Source of the DNA: Acidimicrobiaceae bacterium
GTDB taxonomy: Bacteria > Actinomycetota > Acidimicrobiia > Acidimicrobiales > RAAP-2
Direction: 5' to 3'
Length of the DNA: 64,000 nt
NCBI GenBank assembly: GCA_003155915.1
Contig: PMFA01000029.1
Coordinates: 2,717 to 66,716, forward strand
This document shows positions 15,958-23,821 of this stretch, piece by piece (the stretch's first letter is position 1; each line of letters opens with the position of its first letter). The notes under the pieces were generated by a model. It saw only the letters and a list, made by a program, of their open reading frames with translations. It had not been told where the DNA came from and ran no database searches. A program made the position numbers and the translations under genes.

Positions 15958-16127
15958 AATCCCGGCCGGCACCGAGGCTTCTTTGCATGCCGGTCGTCAA
16001 CGGACTTGTCAACACATCTCCGACTCGGTACGCACAGAGCTGCGCAACATCGGCTCACTCACCCAACGTGGGATTGCCATTCTGATGGAGCGCCAACGCA
16101 AATGCCGTTCGTCTGACTCACGCCAAT

Positions 16128-16180
16128 CATCCGACTCTTAACCAACATGTTCCGGGTTCAAGTCCGCGGCGACGCACCAA
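16128..16180 (+). repeat. duplicate 2 of the tRNA-Lys anticodon-loop-to-3'-end segment (att-like scar)
   Basis: CATCCGACTCTTAACCAACATGTTCCGGGTTCAAGTCCGCGGCGACGCACCAA matches 13213-13265 at 45 of 53 nt by hand alignment, and includes the CTCTTAA anticodon loop. Confidence 0.7.
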
Positions 16181-16473
16181 GTGACAATCCTGATACACGG
16201 CGCTTCTTGACGTACCTCTCAGAGCATTTTTAGCGCCAAAATCCATCACGAAATCCCACACAATCGCCGATCCCTGCGTTCACTCCTTGATACCGCAGCA
16301 CTATTGATCGCAATATCTATCCCAACCTCTGGCCCCGTAACGACGTTCCAAACACGCGGGCTCACATCCGTCAATACGACCGTGCCTCCCGCAAAAAACC
16401 TGAACTCGCCGTTGATATTCCATTTCTTAAGCATATACTCAAACTATTCACTCAAGTTAGGGAGACAACGATA

Positions 16474-17127
16474 ATGGCGAAGTCTGGCACCCCGGGCAAG
16501 GTGACGGCGGGAGGAACCGCACGATCTGCTCAGACGCGGCGAGCCCTCGTGGAAGCCGCTATTGAAACGCTGAAGGATGAAGGTTTTGCGGGAACAAGCG
16601 CTCGAGCAATCTCCGAACGTGCGGGGCTCAACCAAGCTCTGATCTTCTATCACTTCGGCTCGGTGGTAAATCTCCTCCTCGCCGCTCTTGATTCTGTCAG
16701 CAATGACCGCATGGTCAAGTTCAGTGCGGCCATCAATAATGTTTCTTCGCCGACCGATCTCACGAATATCGCTGCTCAAATTTTCCGAGATGACCTCGAC
16801 TCCGGGCACGTGACTGTGCTCGCCGAGATGATTGCTGGCGCTTCTTCAGTCGAGGGTCTCGGCGTTGAGGTGGCCACTCGCTTAAGCCCATGGTTCACAT
16901 TTGCCGAAGAGGCAATTGAAAAGTCCTTTGGCGACTCTCCACTAGCCTCGCTCCTTCCTTCAAGTGATGTCGCGTACGTGATTGTCGCGCTCTATCTCGG
17001 ATTTGAGATGCTCACTCATCTCGACGGAAACCGCGAGCCCGCTCTTAGAATCTTCGGCCACGCCCAGCAACTCGTCACTCTGCTCGGCGCCTTTAGCGCC
17101 TTCATGCCGCCGAGGGCGACAACATGA
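16474..17127 (+). CDS. TetR/AcrR family transcriptional regulator
   Basis: 217-aa ORF with an N-terminal HTH (TSARAISERAGLNQALIFYHFGS). RBS-like GGGAGA lies upstream. Confidence 0.9.
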   Translation: MAKSGTPGKVTAGGTARSAQTRRALVEAAIETLKDEGFAGTSARAISERAGLNQALIFYHFGSVVNLLLAALDSVSNDRMVKFSAAINNVSSPTDLTNIAAQIFRDDLDSGHVTVLAEMIAGASSVEGLGVEVATRLSPWFTFAEEAIEKSFGDSPLASLLPSSDVAYVIVALYLGFEMLTHLDGNREPALRIFGHAQQLVTLLGAFSAFMPPRATT

Positions 17128-18092
17128 CGACCAACCCCGTCGCTCGGAATCAACCGACAAGTTTGTCCGACACCGGACTCGACGCAGTAACGGGCGCCTT
17201 TAGCTACTCGGGGAAAGCAATCAGTAGCGCTCTTATCAATTCCGGTCGCTTAGTACGAACACTCACTGGGCACCCCAATAGGGCGGTCGAGCGATCACCC
17301 ATCGAGATTCGACCACTCGACTTTGAAGATCAGATCGGTTTAGTCGGGTCACTCGAAGGCGTCACCACCCTATACAACACCTATTGGGTCCGCTTCGCTC
17401 ACAATCGAATCGATCATGACCTGGCCGTAGAGAATTCCCGAACACTTTTCCAGGCCGCGAAGCGCGCGGGGGTCCAGCGCATCGTGCACGTCAGCATCAC
17501 GCACCCAAGTGTCGATTCGCCGCTTCCCTACTTTCGAGGTAAGGCTCTCGTCGAACGCTCACTCGCCGAGACCGCAGTGTCGTACGCCGTGTTGCGGCCC
17601 GCCATTCTCTTTGGTGGCGACGGAGTGCTACTGAATAACATCGCTTGGCTGCTTCGGCGTCTTCCCGTGTTCGCCATTGGTGGGCGTGGCGACTATCGCA
17701 TTCGAGGAATCCATGTCGATGACCTCGCCCAACTCTGCCTCAAAAGGGGTGCCGAGCGATACGACAGCGTTGTCGATGCCGTGGGACCGGAACGTCCTAC
17801 ATTCATCGAACTGGTCAACTCGATTAAGGACGCGGTCGAAAGTCGCTCCTTGATCGTTCACCTGCCAGGTGACGCTCTGCTAATCCTTTCGCGCCTCGTG
17901 GGCATGGCACTTGGTGACGTGCTCTTAACTCGCGATGAATATCGTGCGATGGCTGATGGACTTGCCGACACCGATGGGCCGGCCACCGGTTCAATTGCTC
18001 TCTCGGATTGGTTGGTCAACCATAGATCCGAACTCGGCGTCACGTACGCCAACGAACTCAAGCGCCACTTTGACGTAGCGAGTGACCAATGA
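17124..18092 (+). CDS. NAD(P)H-binding atypical SDR (NmrA/NDUFA9-like)
   Basis: 322-aa ORF with the Rossmann motif VTGAFSYSGKAI. Its start overlaps the TetR stop by 4 nt. Confidence 0.75.
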   Translation: MTTNPVARNQPTSLSDTGLDAVTGAFSYSGKAISSALINSGRLVRTLTGHPNRAVERSPIEIRPLDFEDQIGLVGSLEGVTTLYNTYWVRFAHNRIDHDLAVENSRTLFQAAKRAGVQRIVHVSITHPSVDSPLPYFRGKALVERSLAETAVSYAVLRPAILFGGDGVLLNNIAWLLRRLPVFAIGGRGDYRIRGIHVDDLAQLCLKRGAERYDSVVDAVGPERPTFIELVNSIKDAVESRSLIVHLPGDALLILSRLVGMALGDVLLTRDEYRAMADGLADTDGPATGSIALSDWLVNHRSELGVTYANELKRHFDVASDQ

Positions 18093-18553
18093 TGACTCGG
18101 AACGTGTCGTTACCTCTTGTCGCAGCGATTTGTTGGGCCGCGTTACTACTACCGGCGTCGTTGTATATTCCAATCGAGAATCCTCAGAATCTCTCGTATC
18201 AAGTCCACGGTCAGACCGTCAGTCGGTGGGTCTCGTTAGTTCGTGGCAACGGTGATTGGATATTGCTCATTGTCGCCATTCCGCTCGTCCTCTCTCTGGT
18301 CGCTGCGGTTCTTTTGATACTTCAAGCTCGCTCAAAGCAACGGATCCTCGCGGGCGCGGCGTGGTGCTTAGGATTCCTAATTCTCGCCGGAGCTTTTGTT
18401 GGCACCGTGACATTTTTGGTTGGGATATTCGTTGTTCCCGTTGGAATCTTTCTGATCATTTCATGTACGAATTTGCGTCGAGATCAAATCTTGATTTCTC
18501 CACCTACCAAATCCGGAAGCCGACAGGCCGTTCAACAGAGGAACGCGGCTTAA
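18089..18553 (+). CDS. small integral membrane protein, unknown function
   Basis: 154-aa ORF with about four hydrophobic helices. It overlaps the upstream SDR stop by 4 nt (ATGA). Confidence 0.55.
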   Translation: MMTRNVSLPLVAAICWAALLLPASLYIPIENPQNLSYQVHGQTVSRWVSLVRGNGDWILLIVAIPLVLSLVAAVLLILQARSKQRILAGAAWCLGFLILAGAFVGTVTFLVGIFVVPVGIFLIISCTNLRRDQILISPPTKSGSRQAVQQRNAA

Positions 18554-18675
18554 GGGCAGTAAATCCCACACACCAGCACGTACCAAATAAACCAGACCAA
18601 CTCGAGACAACACGATTGCCAGGTTGTTCAAGACAGAATCAACCAAATTGACACACCAAAACGGTACGGAACTCG

Positions 18676-18705
18676 CTCTTGGTCAACAGGTTCTGGCGGG
18701 CGCAC
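18676..18705 (+). repeat. duplicate 3 of the tRNA-Lys 3' segment, heavily degraded
   Basis: CTCTTGGTCAACAGGTTCTGGCGGGCGCAC retains CTCTT, TCAACAGGTTC and CGGGCGCAC blocks of tRNA-Lys. The T-loop region is deleted internally. Confidence 0.4.
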
Positions 18706-18726
18706 TAGGTAGGATTTTTGGTCGCT

Positions 18727-19542
18727 TTACGTATCTCTTCGAGTCATCATCCAGCCCCCTACGGCCAGGAGAACAACCGCGTACAAGGCAATAATTAGCA
18801 GTCCGATGAGTGGACTAAAGAGTGGCGTTCCCTGCAACTGGCTCGGCGTCGTCGAGGCGAAAATCGTGGAACTGATGTTGGCGGGCAGGTATCGACTCAT
18901 GTCGTGGACGATGACTCCGGGCATCGCGAAGAGCACGACGGTCAAGACCAGCATGACGCTGGTGAAGATTGAGAGTGAGGCGGCCGATGATCGAACGATC
19001 GAGGCGATGCCCAGGCCGATGAGACCCACGATTGCCAGGTCGATACCGCTTTCAATCAGCACGCGAAGTATGCCGGGCTGCGAGATGGATATCTGGCTCG
19101 CGTGTCCCGCGAGAATGAAACGCCCAAGGAAATAGGTGGAAAACGAGAGCACCTCACCGAGAGCGAGTCCGACTCCCCCAACAACGATGGCTTTGGCCCC
19201 GAGCACAATTCCTGGTCGCGGCATCGCGGCCACGGTCGAGCGAATTTGGCCGGTGCTGTACTCCGAACTCAAGAAGAGCACTCCGAGCACACCCATGACG
19301 AACTGACCGAAGTTGAAGCCGACGAGGACCCGCATGATCGGATCGTCGATGCGGGCCTGGCTGCGCAGAGCGTTCGTCGAGAGATAACACAGTCCGTACG
19401 TGACGAGAGCGAGCGCGAACACGCTCCATCCAGCGGAGCGCAACGACCAGAACTTGGTCCATTCACCGCGAAGAGCGCAGCGCAGTCCCGCTCGAGAGTT
19501 TGACTCCGTGACATCGTCACGAATGAGAAGAGTAGTTGTCAC
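18727..19542 (-). CDS. ABC-2 type transporter permease
   Basis: 271-aa ORF with about six hydrophobic helices. It overlaps the upstream ATPase gene by 4 nt. Confidence 0.75.
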   Translation of the reverse strand: MTTTLLIRDDVTESNSRAGLRCALRGEWTKFWSLRSAGWSVFALALVTYGLCYLSTNALRSQARIDDPIMRVLVGFNFGQFVMGVLGVLFLSSEYSTGQIRSTVAAMPRPGIVLGAKAIVVGGVGLALGEVLSFSTYFLGRFILAGHASQISISQPGILRVLIESGIDLAIVGLIGLGIASIVRSSAASLSIFTSVMLVLTVVLFAMPGVIVHDMSRYLPANISSTIFASTTPSQLQGTPLFSPLIGLLIIALYAVVLLAVGGWMMTRRDT

Positions 19543-20438
19543 GACGCTCGGTACTCGACCGCGCCTTCGGTCAATTCCATGAACGCGTCTTCGAGTGAGG
19601 AGAGATCGGTTAACTCGTAGAGGGCATTTTGCTGTTCGAGGGCCAGTTCACCGATGGCCTCCGCACTTAGGTTCATCACAGTGAGGCACGAGTTCGGTTC
19701 TCTCAACGTGAGCGCTCCGGCGTCCTCGAGAGCCGGAATCAATAGATCCAGGTTGGCCGCGCGCACTTTGAACGACTGTTTGGAACTGCACGCGACGAAG
19801 TCGTCAACGGAGAGTTCTGCGATAAGGCGCCCCTTACCGATGAGGACTAACTGGTCGGCGGTGCGCGCCATTTCGGCCATCAAGTGACTCGAAATAAGCA
19901 CCGTGCGGCCTTCGGCGGCGAGATCGCGGCAGAGGGATCGCGTCCAGCGAATGCCTTCGGGATCGAGGCCATTCACAGGTTCATCAAGCAAGATGACCGC
20001 TGGGTCACCCAGCAAGGCGCCGGCGATGCCGAGCCGCTGACCCATTCCCAGCGAAAACTTGCCGACCCGTCGTTTGGCGACCGAGGTGAGTCCGACCAGC
20101 TCCAGGACCTCATCGACACGCGATTTCGTGATGCCGCCGTATTGGGCGAGCGACCAAAGGTGAGCGTACGCCGAGCGACCAGGGTGAATAGCGCGTGCTT
20201 CGAGCAACCCACCGACTTCGCGCATCGGCCAGCGAAGATCCTTGTACTTTTTGCCGGAGATTGTGACTGAGCCCGAGTTGGGATGATTGAGGCCCATAAT
20301 CATCGACATCGTCGTGGACTTTCCCGATCCGTTCGGACCAAGGAATCCAGTTACTTGCCCTGGTGCGACGTCAAAAGAAAGGTCGTCGACGGCGACAACA
20401 TCACCGAAACGCTTCGTGAGTCCGCGAACCTTAATCAC
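19539..20438 (-). CDS. ABC transporter ATP-binding protein (ABC-2/exporter type)
   Basis: Walker A GPNGSGKST, signature FSLGMGQRL, Walker B ILLDEP, H-loop SSHLM. Confidence 0.92.
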   Translation of the reverse strand: MIKVRGLTKRFGDVVAVDDLSFDVAPGQVTGFLGPNGSGKSTTMSMIMGLNHPNSGSVTISGKKYKDLRWPMREVGGLLEARAIHPGRSAYAHLWSLAQYGGITKSRVDEVLELVGLTSVAKRRVGKFSLGMGQRLGIAGALLGDPAVILLDEPVNGLDPEGIRWTRSLCRDLAAEGRTVLISSHLMAEMARTADQLVLIGKGRLIAELSVDDFVACSSKQSFKVRAANLDLLIPALEDAGALTLREPNSCLTVMNLSAEAIGELALEQQNALYELTDLSSLEDAFMELTEGAVEYRAS

Positions 20439-20707
20439 CCGACGACCTTAAGTGGCTCAGATAACAAGAGCATGCAGACCTCATAAGAATGACTAAATTC
20501 TACGCGCCATCGACTTCAACCGTGTCAGGACTCACGACGCCACGCAATCCAATTCACGCAGACACCTACTCGATGAACGCTCTCACACGACGTTGTCATG
20601 CAGATGTAACTATGACCCACGCGACGGGGAATGTCGACGTACCGATCACCGATTCGCGTGCCCTCGATCACGCACGATACAGGGAACAAATGGGCGCCGT
20701 CGACGCT

Positions 20708-21550
20708 TCACGCCAGCGCCGAGGGGTCAAAAGCCTCTTCGACGTCATTGAGTGAGACCACCATCGTGGGTCGGACGAGTTGATGCGAATCCTTAGCGAG
20801 TCGCACCACGGTGCCCCAGACCGCGAAGCCCACCGCGTGAGTGGCGAAGCTCATTGGACCTTCCACCAGTTTCACCTCGACAACACCACTACCCTTGAGC
20901 GCCAACGCGTCACTCTGCATTCGTTCCATGGCCGTCTCACGAGCCGAGTACATCGCCTCGGTGAAGTTCTTCAACTCGACGTTTTGGGACTGCTGTTGCA
21001 GCACCGTACCCACCGTGCGACGGGGGGCGTAGACGAAACTTGCCCCGGTCGCCAGACCGAGAGGTTGCCATCCGGCCACCATCAACATCGTGAAGTCGCG
21101 CGCCGATAAGTCCGAGACGAAGACGGCACTCGCGTCCACCGCTTTCGCACCCACCGGGCGAACGGCCGTGCCGAGCAGGGAGATCTCGATATGGGTGGAG
21201 TACACGCGTCGCTCAACGTGCACGCCCACGACACCGTGACCTCCGGCCATGGCGGCCTCGCCGTGGATGCGCTTGATGGCGTACTTGAATGCCTGTTCGT
21301 GCGCCTCACCGGCGGCGACTATCTCTCCCTGACCCCAGTTCCACAGTCCCGCCGGCGTGGAAAAGACCGACAGACCACTGACGAGTTGGACGGGCTCCCA
21401 ACCAATGGAGTGCAGGTTCAGTTCCTCGTCGATCGAAAGGTCCGACGTGGTCGAACCCGCGTCGGGCGCATTTTCTTTTAGTGAGGCGACGGCTCGACGT
21501 ACTTCGGCTTTGGCGTCGGGAGCGCTCGTCGGGTGCTGTGCGTTCGTCAC
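20708..21550 (-). CDS. tandem YbjQ/UPF0145-like (putative heavy-metal-binding, PF01906-like) domain protein, paralogue C
   Basis: 280 aa with a GTG start overlapping the upstream stop (GTGA). Two repeats each end in the ...GVVGV/GVVEV...GTAV-type core. The second repeat carries QNVELKNFTEAMYSARETAMERM, matching paralogue A. Confidence 0.7.
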   Translation of the reverse strand: MTNAQHPTSAPDAKAEVRRAVASLKENAPDAGSTTSDLSIDEELNLHSIGWEPVQLVSGLSVFSTPAGLWNWGQGEIVAAGEAHEQAFKYAIKRIHGEAAMAGGHGVVGVHVERRVYSTHIEISLLGTAVRPVGAKAVDASAVFVSDLSARDFTMLMVAGWQPLGLATGASFVYAPRRTVGTVLQQQSQNVELKNFTEAMYSARETAMERMQSDALALKGSGVVEVKLVEGPMSFATHAVGFAVWGTVVRLAKDSHQLVRPTMVVSLNDVEEAFDPSALA

Positions 21551-22434
21551 GAGAGTCGTACCGTTGGTTTGGGAACCGGCAATGGGTCAAAACCCTTGTA
21601 GCGCCGAATGCGATTGCCGCGCAGTACTGCTTCGACCTCCAGGTCCCCCTTCTCGAACTCTCGTTCACTGAGTTGCAAGTCCGCGCCGTGCAGCGCGTCG
21701 CCGTGGAGTTGATCGCGCGCCGACGTGCGTACCATGAAGCGCGCTTGAGACATCGCGGTGACGATCTGTTCGATCTCGGTGGGGCTCGTCGAGTTTGACC
21801 ACATGCCCATACCTTCCATCAGGTACTCGGTGACGCAGGACGCCCACACCCGGATTGATGAGACGGACGCGACAATCGACACCGGCACGTAGCCCGCTTC
21901 GAAGACCTTCGCGAGACGCTGCCCGGCCAGATACGTGCTCCAGGGCGTTGACGCCGCCGCCGGCGTGTCCAGCACCTTCACGGCCGTACCCGACATGTGA
22001 AACTCGGTCACGTTGGCGTCGGTCAGACGGCTCACCGTATCGACGACACCCACGACGCCGTGCGCGCCGAGCTCAGTCGCTTCTTCAAGCATGCGCGAGT
22101 ACGAACTCGTGAAGCCTTCGTTCCACGCACTTTCGACCCACGTTTGTTGGTAGTTCTGGCCCCACATTCGATGTTCGCCAGCGATCATGCCGTGGGGACA
22201 CTGATAGTTCTGTACGTAGCCGCCCTGGGATCCTCCGTAGGGCGAGAGGCCTCGAGAGAGTCCCATCATCGAGTACACGCCCTGTTGCATCGCGCAGAAT
22301 CCTTGCACGAGCCCCACGGGCTCGAGACCCAACTCCAGGCACGCCGCGAAGTCCGACACGCTGAGCCCCGAAGAGAACGCGCCGGCACTGAGCCGGCGCT
22401 CCGCCGCTTCGGGTAGGTCGCTCGGCGGCGTCAT
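21547..22434 (-). CDS. tandem YbjQ/UPF0145-like domain protein, divergent paralogue B
   Basis: The true start is the ATG at 22434, overlapping the upstream stop (TAATG). The longer track ORF to 22734 is a shadow extension through gene A. The first repeat retains LEEATELGAHGVVGV...SGTAVKV but holds a ~35-aa insertion. The second repeat is strongly degenerated. Confidence 0.65.
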   Translation of the reverse strand: MTPPSDLPEAAERRLSAGAFSSGLSVSDFAACLELGLEPVGLVQGFCAMQQGVYSMMGLSRGLSPYGGSQGGYVQNYQCPHGMIAGEHRMWGQNYQQTWVESAWNEGFTSSYSRMLEEATELGAHGVVGVVDTVSRLTDANVTEFHMSGTAVKVLDTPAAASTPWSTYLAGQRLAKVFEAGYVPVSIVASVSSIRVWASCVTEYLMEGMGMWSNSTSPTEIEQIVTAMSQARFMVRTSARDQLHGDALHGADLQLSEREFEKGDLEVEAVLRGNRIRRYKGFDPLPVPKPTVRLS

Positions 22435-23231
22435 TAGTTGTCGAGCGTGATGATCGTCGTGGGCTTGGCCAGGGTGACCTCGTCCGAGGTCTTCAAGACG
22501 GCGGTGCCGAGTGAGAGGAACTCGATGGTGTGCGAACCCCACTGGTGCGACTTCTCTTCGAGGCGAACGCCCACGATGCCCGTAGCGCTCAGTCGTGTGG
22601 CCTCGTCTTGCATGCGCGTCATGGCCAGTTCTCGCGCTTCGTAGAGCGCCTGAGTGAAGTTCGGCAGCTCCACGTTCTGACCCGTCGTCCCCAGTGTCTG
22701 GCCGATGCCGCGGTGCGCGATGTGGTACACGCACGTGCCCATCACGAGACCTTGAGGGAAGTAGCCCGTCTGCAGCAGTGTCCAGAAATCCTGGCCCGAG
22801 AGGTCCGACGTGAAGGGCTTACCTAGTTTGTTGAGGCGCGACACGCCGTCCTCGGCCTTCACGGCGGTCCCGACCGCAATGAACTCCGCGGCGTCCTTGC
22901 CCCAGTCGTAGTAGTTGACCGTCAAGCGTACGCCCACGACACCGTCGGCACCCAGTTCGGCCGCCTCTTCTTCCATTCGCGTCATGGCGAGTTCACGCGC
23001 GTTGTACATCGCCTCGGTGAGCTTCGTCAACTCCAGACTCTGTCCCCACTTACGCGTTTGAATGCCGGTGTGATAGATCGACGACCCCATCACAAAACCG
23101 GCGGGGTGAAAGCCCACCTCCTTGATCAAGAGGAACTCATTGACCGAGAGATCCGAGGTGAAGAGACCTTTCTCCAACTCCTCGAGTCGATGGCCCGTCG
23201 CTTGGGGTAGATCGTTCGTTACGTCGCTCAC
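22434..23231 (-). CDS. tandem YbjQ/UPF0145-like domain protein, paralogue A
   Basis: 265 aa with an obvious internal duplication. Repeat 1: FTSDLSVNEFLLIKEVGFHPAGFVMG...TEAMYNARELAMTRMEEEAAELGADGVVGVRL...AVGTAV. Repeat 2: FTSDLSGQDFWTLLQTGYFPQGLVMG...TQALYEARELAMTRMQDEATRLSATGIVGVRL...SLGTAV. The core resembles single-domain YbjQ proteins (A.E.A...M...A..LGA.AVVGV....GTAV). Confidence 0.75.
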   Translation of the reverse strand: MSDVTNDLPQATGHRLEELEKGLFTSDLSVNEFLLIKEVGFHPAGFVMGSSIYHTGIQTRKWGQSLELTKLTEAMYNARELAMTRMEEEAAELGADGVVGVRLTVNYYDWGKDAAEFIAVGTAVKAEDGVSRLNKLGKPFTSDLSGQDFWTLLQTGYFPQGLVMGTCVYHIAHRGIGQTLGTTGQNVELPNFTQALYEARELAMTRMQDEATRLSATGIVGVRLEEKSHQWGSHTIEFLSLGTAVLKTSDEVTLAKPTTIITLDN

Positions 23232-23629
23232 GTGTTGCCTCCTATGACAAGGTTTTCGAGGGCCTGTCGAGCCGTGTCACTGTGGGCCGCTTCGGCCTGG
23301 AGTGCCCCGAGAAGTTTGACGATCCATACGTTGACGTCAACGTTTTCGTTACGGATGCGAATCCCGCCCGAGAAGTGTCCGACCGTGCAGCGAAGGTCCG
23401 ACCCATCGATCACCGCCTCGAACTGGTCACTGGCCATAGTGATCTGCACCGAGGAGATGGCTTCGGACTTCTTGAATCGACTGCCGCCGCGCTGGACGCG
23501 CAAGCGATCGCCGAGCGTGTCGGAGAGCTCTTCACAGAGCGCCTTCAAGAGGAGTCGAAGGTCGGTGCTGTTCGAGCGAAGCATCGCCGCCGCCATGTTG
23601 AGGTCGTACGAGTCGTCCATCGAAGTCAT
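23228..23629 (-). CDS. hypothetical protein, first cistron of the YbjQ-like operon
   Basis: Same frame as track ORF 23228..23689. The ATG at 23629 is preceded by AAGGTGG. 133 aa (MTSMDDSYDLNMAAAMLRSN...) with no motif I recognise. Its stop overlaps the start of paralogue A (GTGA). Confidence 0.55.
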   Translation of the reverse strand: MTSMDDSYDLNMAAAMLRSNSTDLRLLLKALCEELSDTLGDRLRVQRGGSRFKKSEAISSVQITMASDQFEAVIDGSDLRCTVGHFSGGIRIRNENVDVNVWIVKLLGALQAEAAHSDTARQALENLVIGGNT

Positions 23630-23821
23630 TAGTGGCCACCTTACAGGGAACACTTTTCCCTGTTCTCTGTGCCGTATCGCTCGCCGCACTCGCCGGCCGG
23701 CGCACCAAGATTAAGTTGCGTTACGTGAATCCGTTGAGCTCCTCGGTACTGTTTCGACGACTAAGTGCCCAGCCAACGAACACGTCGTCGCCTCCTTCCC
23801 ACGAGATGACGGAGTGAAGTC

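Follow-up and report, generated by a model that had tools for sequence, protein, structure and literature searches.

A conserved four-gene cluster of three tandem-YbjQ paralogues and a new partner family in Acidimicrobiales and other soil bacteria

A stretch of 64,000 nucleotides from the genome of an Acidimicrobiaceae bacterium (contig PMFA01000029.1; the whole stretch is called the window below) carries four chained genes on its minus strand, here named L, A, B and C. Three of them encode doubled versions of the small YbjQ/UPF0145/DUF74 domain, and the question raised by this locus is what such a set of genes would make. Neither a published description of the cluster nor an established YbjQ/UPF0145 function was found in the searchable full-text literature, in agreement with the initial annotation, which had been aware of no described system with this architecture and had regarded the function of YbjQ as never firmly established. 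The cluster is a known domain family of function unknown accompanied by a new partner family, L. On balance, and with moderate confidence, we favour reading L-A-B-C as an operon for a soluble hetero-oligomeric tandem-YbjQ complex in which L is an accessory.

Four overlapping genes and their products

The ORF list and the sequence agree on four minus-strand open reading frames (ORFs) in the order L-A-B-C, at the coordinates originally assigned to them:

23228..23629, minus strand: gene L, first cistron, 133 amino acids from an ATG; acidic and soluble, isoelectric point 5.1
22434..23231, minus strand: gene A, 265 amino acids; tandem-YbjQ, the slow-evolving core paralogue
21547..22434, minus strand: gene B, 295 amino acids; tandem-YbjQ, the fast-evolving paralogue
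20708..21550, minus strand: gene C, last cistron, 280 amino acids; tandem-YbjQ, of intermediate rate

The junction from L to A (...ACGTGAGC) is a GTGA with a 4-nt overlap, that from A to B (...AACTAATGACG) a TAATG with a 1-nt overlap, and that from B to C (...TCGTGACG) again a GTGA with a 4-nt overlap, so the chain of GTGA, TAATG and GTGA overlaps read in the initial annotation is confirmed. Judged from their sequences, all four products are acidic soluble proteins. An alternative start of L, a GTG at 23689, would give a protein of 153 amino acids; since the homologues of L are 128-134 amino acids long and a -10-like box lies just 5' of the ATG, the ATG start is favoured.

Cistrons 2-4 had been taken for paralogues of one another, each an internal duplication of a YbjQ-like module, and both parts of this description are borne out. 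A and C are 36% identical over 246 amino acids (E-value 2e-39) and A and B 27% identical over 302 amino acids (E-value 3e-22), a paralogy far above chance. Within A, the halves are 46% identical across 114 amino acids (E-value 4e-33), and within C 30% (E-value 5e-7); in B the second half has degenerated, with links only to its counterpart in A (E-value 6e-8) and to the tandem-YbjQ profile. Against the Pfam family PF01906 (YbjQ/DUF74), which has a gathering cutoff of 23 bits, A scored 85.4 bits in two stretches, C 44.6 bits in two stretches and B 26.4 bits in one stretch, its first domain alone. All three are thus members of the YbjQ/UPF0145 family, as had been proposed, and the family motifs AR(E)xA...G(A)xGV(V/I)GV...GTAV are present in them. 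With the NCBIfam equivalogs NF002989, NF002776 and NF002224, whose cutoffs are 160-181 bits, the best score was 56 bits (for A); being so far below the cutoffs (56 vs 181 bits), the window proteins are not orthologues of E. coli YbjQ.

Within A the following parts can be distinguished:

22851..23165, minus strand: first YbjQ domain of A, approximately residues 23-127, ending ...EFIAVGTAVKA
22488..22817, minus strand: second YbjQ domain of A, approximately residues 139-248
22437..22472, minus strand: C-terminal tail of A, LAKPTTIITLDN; tails differ by paralogue class

The AlphaFold2 model of A has a predicted local distance difference test score (pLDDT) of 91 and a predicted template modelling score (pTM) of 0.87. 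When it was compared with the PDB by Foldseek, the only matches were 1Y2I and 1VR4 (YbjQ pentamers), 3QKB (DUF74) and the RcsF fold, with a Foldseek probability of 0.96-1.00 and a target-normalised TM-score of 0.6-0.77 for 1Y2I, 1VR4 and 3QKB. On this model, A has the YbjQ fold (beta-alpha-beta-beta). The window proteins share domain and fold with the YbjQ/UPF0145/DUF74 entries 1Y2I, 1VR4, 2GTC and 3QKB, but canonical YbjQ proteins have a single domain of approximately 100-110 amino acids, with five identical chains per crystal entry, whereas here two domains are joined in proteins of 265-295 amino acids. The tandem-YbjQ proteins further differ from the canonical ones by a helix added at the N-terminus, an insertion in a loop and a conserved tail at the C-terminus and, unlike them, are encoded as three ancient paralogues together with an unrelated partner. 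No solved tandem-YbjQ structure was found in the PDB, including by Foldseek with the model of A.

The three paralogues have diverged to very different degrees. A has more than 8000 homologues in a 90%-clustered protein collection and, in a collection clustered at 50% identity, matched 2304 clusters, of which 348 were full-length-like with E-values below 1e-30. Across 56 species, 69% of the positions of A are at least 80% identical, compared with 18% for B and 30% for C, and A proteins of Acidimicrobiia and Thermoleophilia are still 62-66% identical. A neighbour-joining tree, which mostly tracks taxonomy, has A-, B- and C-type clades that arose before the orders separated, and members of each clade occupy the same place in the operon. 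A, B and C are ancient paralogues with strongly unequal rates. B matches the tandem-YbjQ profile over positions 14-263 (E-value 6e-26); its first domain carries an insertion of approximately 45 amino acids rich in Gly, Gln and Tyr (residues ~50-97), and the family motifs are gone from its second domain, where GNRI replaces GTAV. A partly conserved stretch, QCPHG...W-G-Q-N, lies within the insertion.

At the C-terminus, each paralogue class has a conserved tail peculiar to it, and the alignments, which include at least 56 species, give these tails a common core, P-x-x-[VIL]-[VIL]-x-L. The tails read ...TIITLDN, ...PTVRLS and ...VVSLND.... In the AlphaFold2 monomer model the tail of A is of lower confidence and has no secondary structure; a conserved tail of this kind may pair as a strand with a neighbouring subunit. 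Some C-type proteins (loci L026, L029, L036, L039 and others) have an additional Arg/Lys-rich C-terminal extension, e.g., ...GKNRRGRDRRR, which is absent from the C protein of the window.

L had initially been called an orphan, and this description does not hold. Although L matched nothing in Pfam, NCBIfam or PADLOC, a single-sequence search recovered 200 homologues and a profile of diverse L sequences recovered 1337 protein clusters, all of them named 'hypothetical', so that L belongs to a widespread unannotated family. The AlphaFold2 model of L (pLDDT 75) consists of two helices, five strands and two further helices, and matched no fold in the PDB or BFVD (Foldseek noise, with TM-scores below 0.4); nor did the sequence of L match any PDB sequence, that of 2K3M (Rv1761c) included. 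L is a new partner family without a known sequence, profile or fold relative. Three more specific identities were considered and rejected. A remote kinship of L with YbjQ was ruled out by profile-profile comparison (hhalign probability 0.4%), homology with Rv1761c/2K3M by the lack of a sequence match, and membership in Pfam through divergent L proteins by finding just scattered matches with E-values above 0.007.

The cluster across species and the limits of the unit

One genome per GTDB species was scanned, which gave at least 474 loci with relatives of A, and the best 80 were examined; these come from Acidimicrobiales, Solirubrobacterales, Dormibacterota and other Actinomycetota. All 80 species-representative loci contain a homologue of L next to 2-3 tandem-YbjQ genes that share one strand with it. 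The initial annotation had made its proposal depend on the four genes occurring together outside the genome of the window, and the four families do so in many species. With Y standing for a tandem-YbjQ gene, and counting the loci of this comparison, six of them copies of the window locus, the architecture is L-Y-Y-Y in 63 cases, L-Y-Y in 16 (Solirubrobacterales) and Y-Y-L in two, one of the latter on a Streptomyces linear plasmid with 58% identity to A. The six copies (L001-L006) represent the window's own population, metagenome-assembled genomes (MAGs) of Acidimicrobiales from Stordalen Mire. In the reverse test, 2-3 tandem-YbjQ genes were found directly downstream of L in five of five loci selected by L; the L family was thus always encountered beside tandem-YbjQ genes. 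No intact locus had a single tandem-YbjQ gene, the two cases of an L with one such gene being a contig end and a decayed plasmid copy. On the other hand, Y-Y pairs in an Alicyclobacillaceae MAG (Firmicutes) and in one other lineage have no L. L is accessory, not universal.

The way in which the genes are joined is conserved together with their order. Among 25 intact L-Y-Y-Y loci, the 4-nt overlap from L to A recurs in 15 (18 with an overlap of any kind), the 1-nt overlap from A to B in 16 (20 with any) and the 4-nt overlap from B to C in 17 (19 with any). The same -4/-1/-4 pattern is found in L097, one of the loci selected by L. In five MAGs with the prefix 'MFD' (loci L017, L034, L040, L064 and L087), the L and tandem-YbjQ genes are apparently split by frameshifts, which are probably assembly errors and not pseudogenes.

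The flanking genes, by contrast with the conserved interior, are unrelated between lineages. No common flanking cluster was present in more than 15 of approximately 80 loci when the longest ORFs were clustered, with a gene caller that errs on frame in high-GC DNA. In the window the operon is flanked by housekeeping genes and, as noted initially, by no mobile-element gene. The cluster is a real, ancient, widespread and self-contained unit. Four L-Y-Y loci selected by L (L091, L093, L098 and L099), of the Solirubrobacterales type, have a synteny of their own, with genes for an enoyl-CoA hydratase, an HMG-CoA-lyase-like protein, a 3-hydroxyacyl-CoA dehydrogenase and a carboxyltransferase, and in three of these four an unannotated gene of 365-375 amino acids lies approximately 100-150 bp upstream of L; neither this synteny nor the unannotated gene was seen in Acidimicrobiales. 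Truncated L-like and tandem-YbjQ ORFs are present at ~41.1-41.9 kb of the conjugative plasmid AP018309 of Aulosira laxa NIES-50 (locus L090), close to an antirestriction gene. The remnant indicates occasional horizontal transfer of the module, followed by decay. A phage origin was rejected, as PHROGs gave just a generic match to a family of unknown function and IMG/VR held no relatives, and identity with a known defence system was rejected for want of a match in PADLOC-DB 2.0.0.

An ABC-2 ATPase/permease pair lies on the same strand 270 bp downstream of the operon in the window, and the initial annotation had taken this as a hint of a membrane or export link. The neighbourhood comparison contradicts it. 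The ABC-2 permease is next to the operon only in L001-L006, and the pair adjoins it in none of the other species examined; elsewhere just weak, unlinked ABC ATPase matches occur, and at a locus with an 86% identical A protein the neighbours are quite different. Two signals lie between the operon and the pair: a promoter-like site within the 270-bp gap and a hairpin, which together with a hexamer in front of L would mark the limits of the transcript:

20694..20706, minus strand: GC-rich, terminator-like hairpin, GCGTCGACGGCGC, directly 3' of the C stop codon; a match to consensus only, with a weak T tract
23638..23643, minus strand: TAAGGT hexamer ending 8 nt before the L ATG; probable -10 box, alternatively a ribosome-binding site (AAGGTGG)

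Furthermore, the GC content is 0.56 at 16001-20000, the stretch with the TetR, NmrA and ABC-2 genes, compared with ~0.60-0.63 on either side. Since the adjacency is confined to the window's own population, the gap contains these signals and the GC content of the ABC-2 stretch is lower, the exporter link is rejected. The low-GC stretch may be a more recent acquisition.

A TANNNT box 6-8 nt before the in-frame start of L was found in 51 of 82 loci (L007-L088), compared with 0.65% of start-like triplets, in the variants TAGGGT, TAGCCT, TACCCT, TACGAT and TAAGGT. This points to an operon mRNA that is probably leaderless or has a very short leader, transcribed from its own promoter directly before L, with the transcription start read from the sequence. 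Leaderless mRNAs are common in Actinomycetota. No Rfam family, and hence no riboswitch or other known RNA, was matched around the operon at an E-value of 1 or below. A perfect 8-bp inverted repeat (ACAGGGAA-aagtg-TTCCCTGT, 23643-23663, minus strand) abuts the -10-like box before L; it was given no role because it is absent from the closest loci and chance alone would give approximately six of this kind in 64 kb.

Rv1762c and the choice between explanations

The only member of the family with experimental observations is Rv1762c of M. tuberculosis (UniProt O06797), a protein of 262 amino acids with two DUF74/'heavy metal-binding' domains (PMC9846648). It thus has the architecture of the window's tandem-YbjQ proteins, ~260 amino acids with two DUF74 domains. 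Its peptide 111-130, EHLEFMAVGTAVRYTAKPGA, contains EFMAVGTAVR (PMC5320590). Residues 116-126 of A (EFIAVGTAVKA) are identical with this 20-residue peptide at 9 of 11 positions and lie at the equivalent place in the protein (EF[IM]AVGTAV[KR]x). Rv1762c co-purified with the sedimented encapsulin fraction and was consistently present in nanocompartment preparations together with Cfp29 and DyP (PMC8635971), and a Rv1762c::Tn mutant was moderately susceptible to H2O2 at pH 4.5 (preprint 10.1101/2020.08.31.276014). By analogy, tandem-YbjQ proteins would seem to build or take part in large assemblies that sediment, and oxidative or acid stress may be conditions in which they matter. The neighbour of Rv1762c, the small membrane protein Rv1761c (2K3M), is a point of difference, as it is not a homologue of L. 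In H37Rv an IS6110 element presumably lies upstream of Rv1762c, so the L-A-B-C arrangement is not evident there; the upstream neighbour in M. bovis is BQ2027_RS09140.

The initial annotation had suggested that YbjQ-like modules delivered in fixed stoichiometry with a leader protein form a hetero-oligomer and are not three redundant enzymes. The comparative part of this proposal has gained support, in that conserved co-occurrence, gene order and overlap type fit a hetero-oligomer of fixed stoichiometry better than redundant enzymes, while the complex itself is still something that we infer. Coupling through the start-stop overlaps would allow L and the three paralogues to be made in a fixed ratio from a self-contained L-A-B-C unit that probably has its own promoter before L and its end at the hairpin after C, and the four products would then assemble into one soluble cytoplasmic hetero-oligomer. 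A, extremely conserved, would be the functional or hub subunit; B, with its degenerate domain and large insertion, and the divergent C would be specialised structural partners derived from an ancestral homo-oligomer. L would serve as a lineage-specific accessory or assembly subunit in Actinomycetota and Dormibacterota, and formerly on the cyanobacterial plasmid that bears the remnant. Taken together, the conserved overlaps, the unequal rates, the insertion and motif loss of B, the kept operon positions, the class-specific tails and the five-chain relatives form the pattern expected when a homo-oligomer has turned into an obligate hetero-oligomer. If Rv1762c is a guide, the complex is likely to be of a size that sediments, and a role in tolerance of oxidative or acid stress is possible.

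Several points weigh against this hetero-oligomer. The association of the four products is deduced from comparison, and so are the size of the complex, both ends of the transcript and what the complex would do in the cell. Coupled genes in conserved order are also known from operons whose products do not interact. L is missing from some lineages and is therefore inessential to the core function, and the TAAGGT of the window could be a ribosome-binding site instead of a -10 box. As for Rv1762c, it may be an encapsulin cargo or a contaminant and not a self-assembling particle; its assignment to the A type is made from architecture and a 20-residue peptide; and its stress phenotype is given in the text of the preprint only, not in the published main text (PMC8635971).

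The main rival is that A, B and C are independent homo-oligomers with separate ligand or enzyme roles, L being an unrelated protein that is merely co-regulated. The solved single-domain YbjQ structures with five identical chains per entry agree with it, and the strong divergence of B and C from A would be expected if their functions were separate. However, separate functions sit poorly with the lack of any intact locus that keeps one paralogue alone, with an overlap type conserved across classes and with the motif loss in B's second domain, a typical trait of non-functional pseudo-subunits that a partner keeps in place; we regard independent homo-oligomers as unlikely. A bolder version of assembly, in which L, A, B and C build a large self-assembling cage or nanocompartment-like particle, is a long shot. 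In such a cage the symmetry would come from pentamer-forming YbjQ modules, three quasi-equivalent paralogues at 1:1:1 would be the subunit types of a pseudo-T=3 shell, and L would be a scaffold, plug or cargo; a cage would explain the occurrence of Rv1762c in ultracentrifuged preparations without an obvious targeting peptide or an adjacent encapsulin gene. The same preparations (PMC8635971) could instead mean that encapsulins carry tandem-YbjQ proteins as secondary cargo or have them as partners, with the tails of these proteins as targeting peptides, and the [VI]-[ST]-L-[DN] in the tails of all three classes is vaguely reminiscent of G-S-L-[KR]. The cargo-loading peptides of encapsulins have the consensus GSL[KR], and this core is missing from the tails of the paralogues. 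When searched with an encapsulin query sequence validated against PDB 7P1T, the 64 kb of the window and the 5-8 kb on either side of the gene in approximately 95 related loci yielded no family-1 encapsulin gene (Cfp29-/maritimacin-like), and YbjQ-like chains are absent from the encapsulin entries of the PDB. Co-sedimentation, moreover, is no proof of encapsulation. The observations on Rv1762c do not turn tandem-YbjQ proteins into standard encapsulin cargo, and a secondary role of this type appears very unlikely.

Two further explanations look to the surroundings of the genes. A mobile stress, defence or toxin-antitoxin-like cassette spread by horizontal transfer would account for the variable flanking genes, for the copies on Streptomyces linear plasmids and the decayed one on a conjugative cyanobacterial plasmid, and for the toxin-antitoxin genes, transposases or integrases that adjoin some loci. 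Yet none of the four proteins matched PADLOC-DB 2.0.0 at an E-value of 0.1 or below, IMG/VR contained no relatives and phage records gave one weak partial match; all four proteins are acidic and soluble, and none matched a nuclease, NADase or pore-former in Pfam or PADLOC. The identity of A (62-66% between classes and 58% to Streptomyces) is also far above that usual for defence genes, the tree mostly follows taxonomy and the operon of the window has housekeeping neighbours, so that we give a mobile cassette very little credence. Least probable of all is that the proteins bind heavy metals and cooperate with the neighbouring ABC-2 exporter to handle or export them, a reading to which the Pfam and PGAP family names and the same-strand pair 270 bp downstream had pointed. 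In addition to the neighbourhood, the gap signals and the GC content described above, the family itself argues against it: it has no invariant Cys or His, C contains no Cys and A a single one, and the label 'heavy-metal-binding' was a guess from structure. Metal binding has no support beyond that name.

Likeness to known systems and meaning for the family

In mode of action, although not in membership, the proposed hetero-oligomer may resemble dodecin-type oligomers, in which a small beta-alpha-beta-beta module is active only as a symmetric oligomer. Structural classifications place YbjQ-like proteins in the dodecin-subunit-like fold, and the ligand sites of dodecins lie between subunits. On the other hand, neither sequence nor Foldseek comparison led from A to a dodecin. 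Proteasome alpha and beta subunits and the rings of CCT are similar in that several ancient paralogues of one fold are kept together, some of them degenerate and with unequal rates of evolution. The comparison is an evolutionary analogy only, without homology.

YbjQ/DUF74 is a long-standing and widespread bacterial family with structures and no function, and the cluster offers a way in: a conserved, coupled set of three non-redundant tandem paralogues with a dedicated partner. Its carriers belong to very abundant and poorly studied soil lineages (Acidimicrobiales, Solirubrobacterales and Dormibacterota), while the copies on Streptomyces plasmids, one of them at 250.5-252.6 kb of NZ_CP108424 (Streptomyces sp. 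NBC_01294), suggest a culturable and potentially tractable host. For the M. tuberculosis relative, an unexplained biochemical behaviour and the hint of a stress phenotype are already on record. If L, A, B and C do form one defined complex, a domain of function unknown would become a testable molecular machine, and the presence of Rv1762c in mycobacterial nanocompartment preparations would be clarified.

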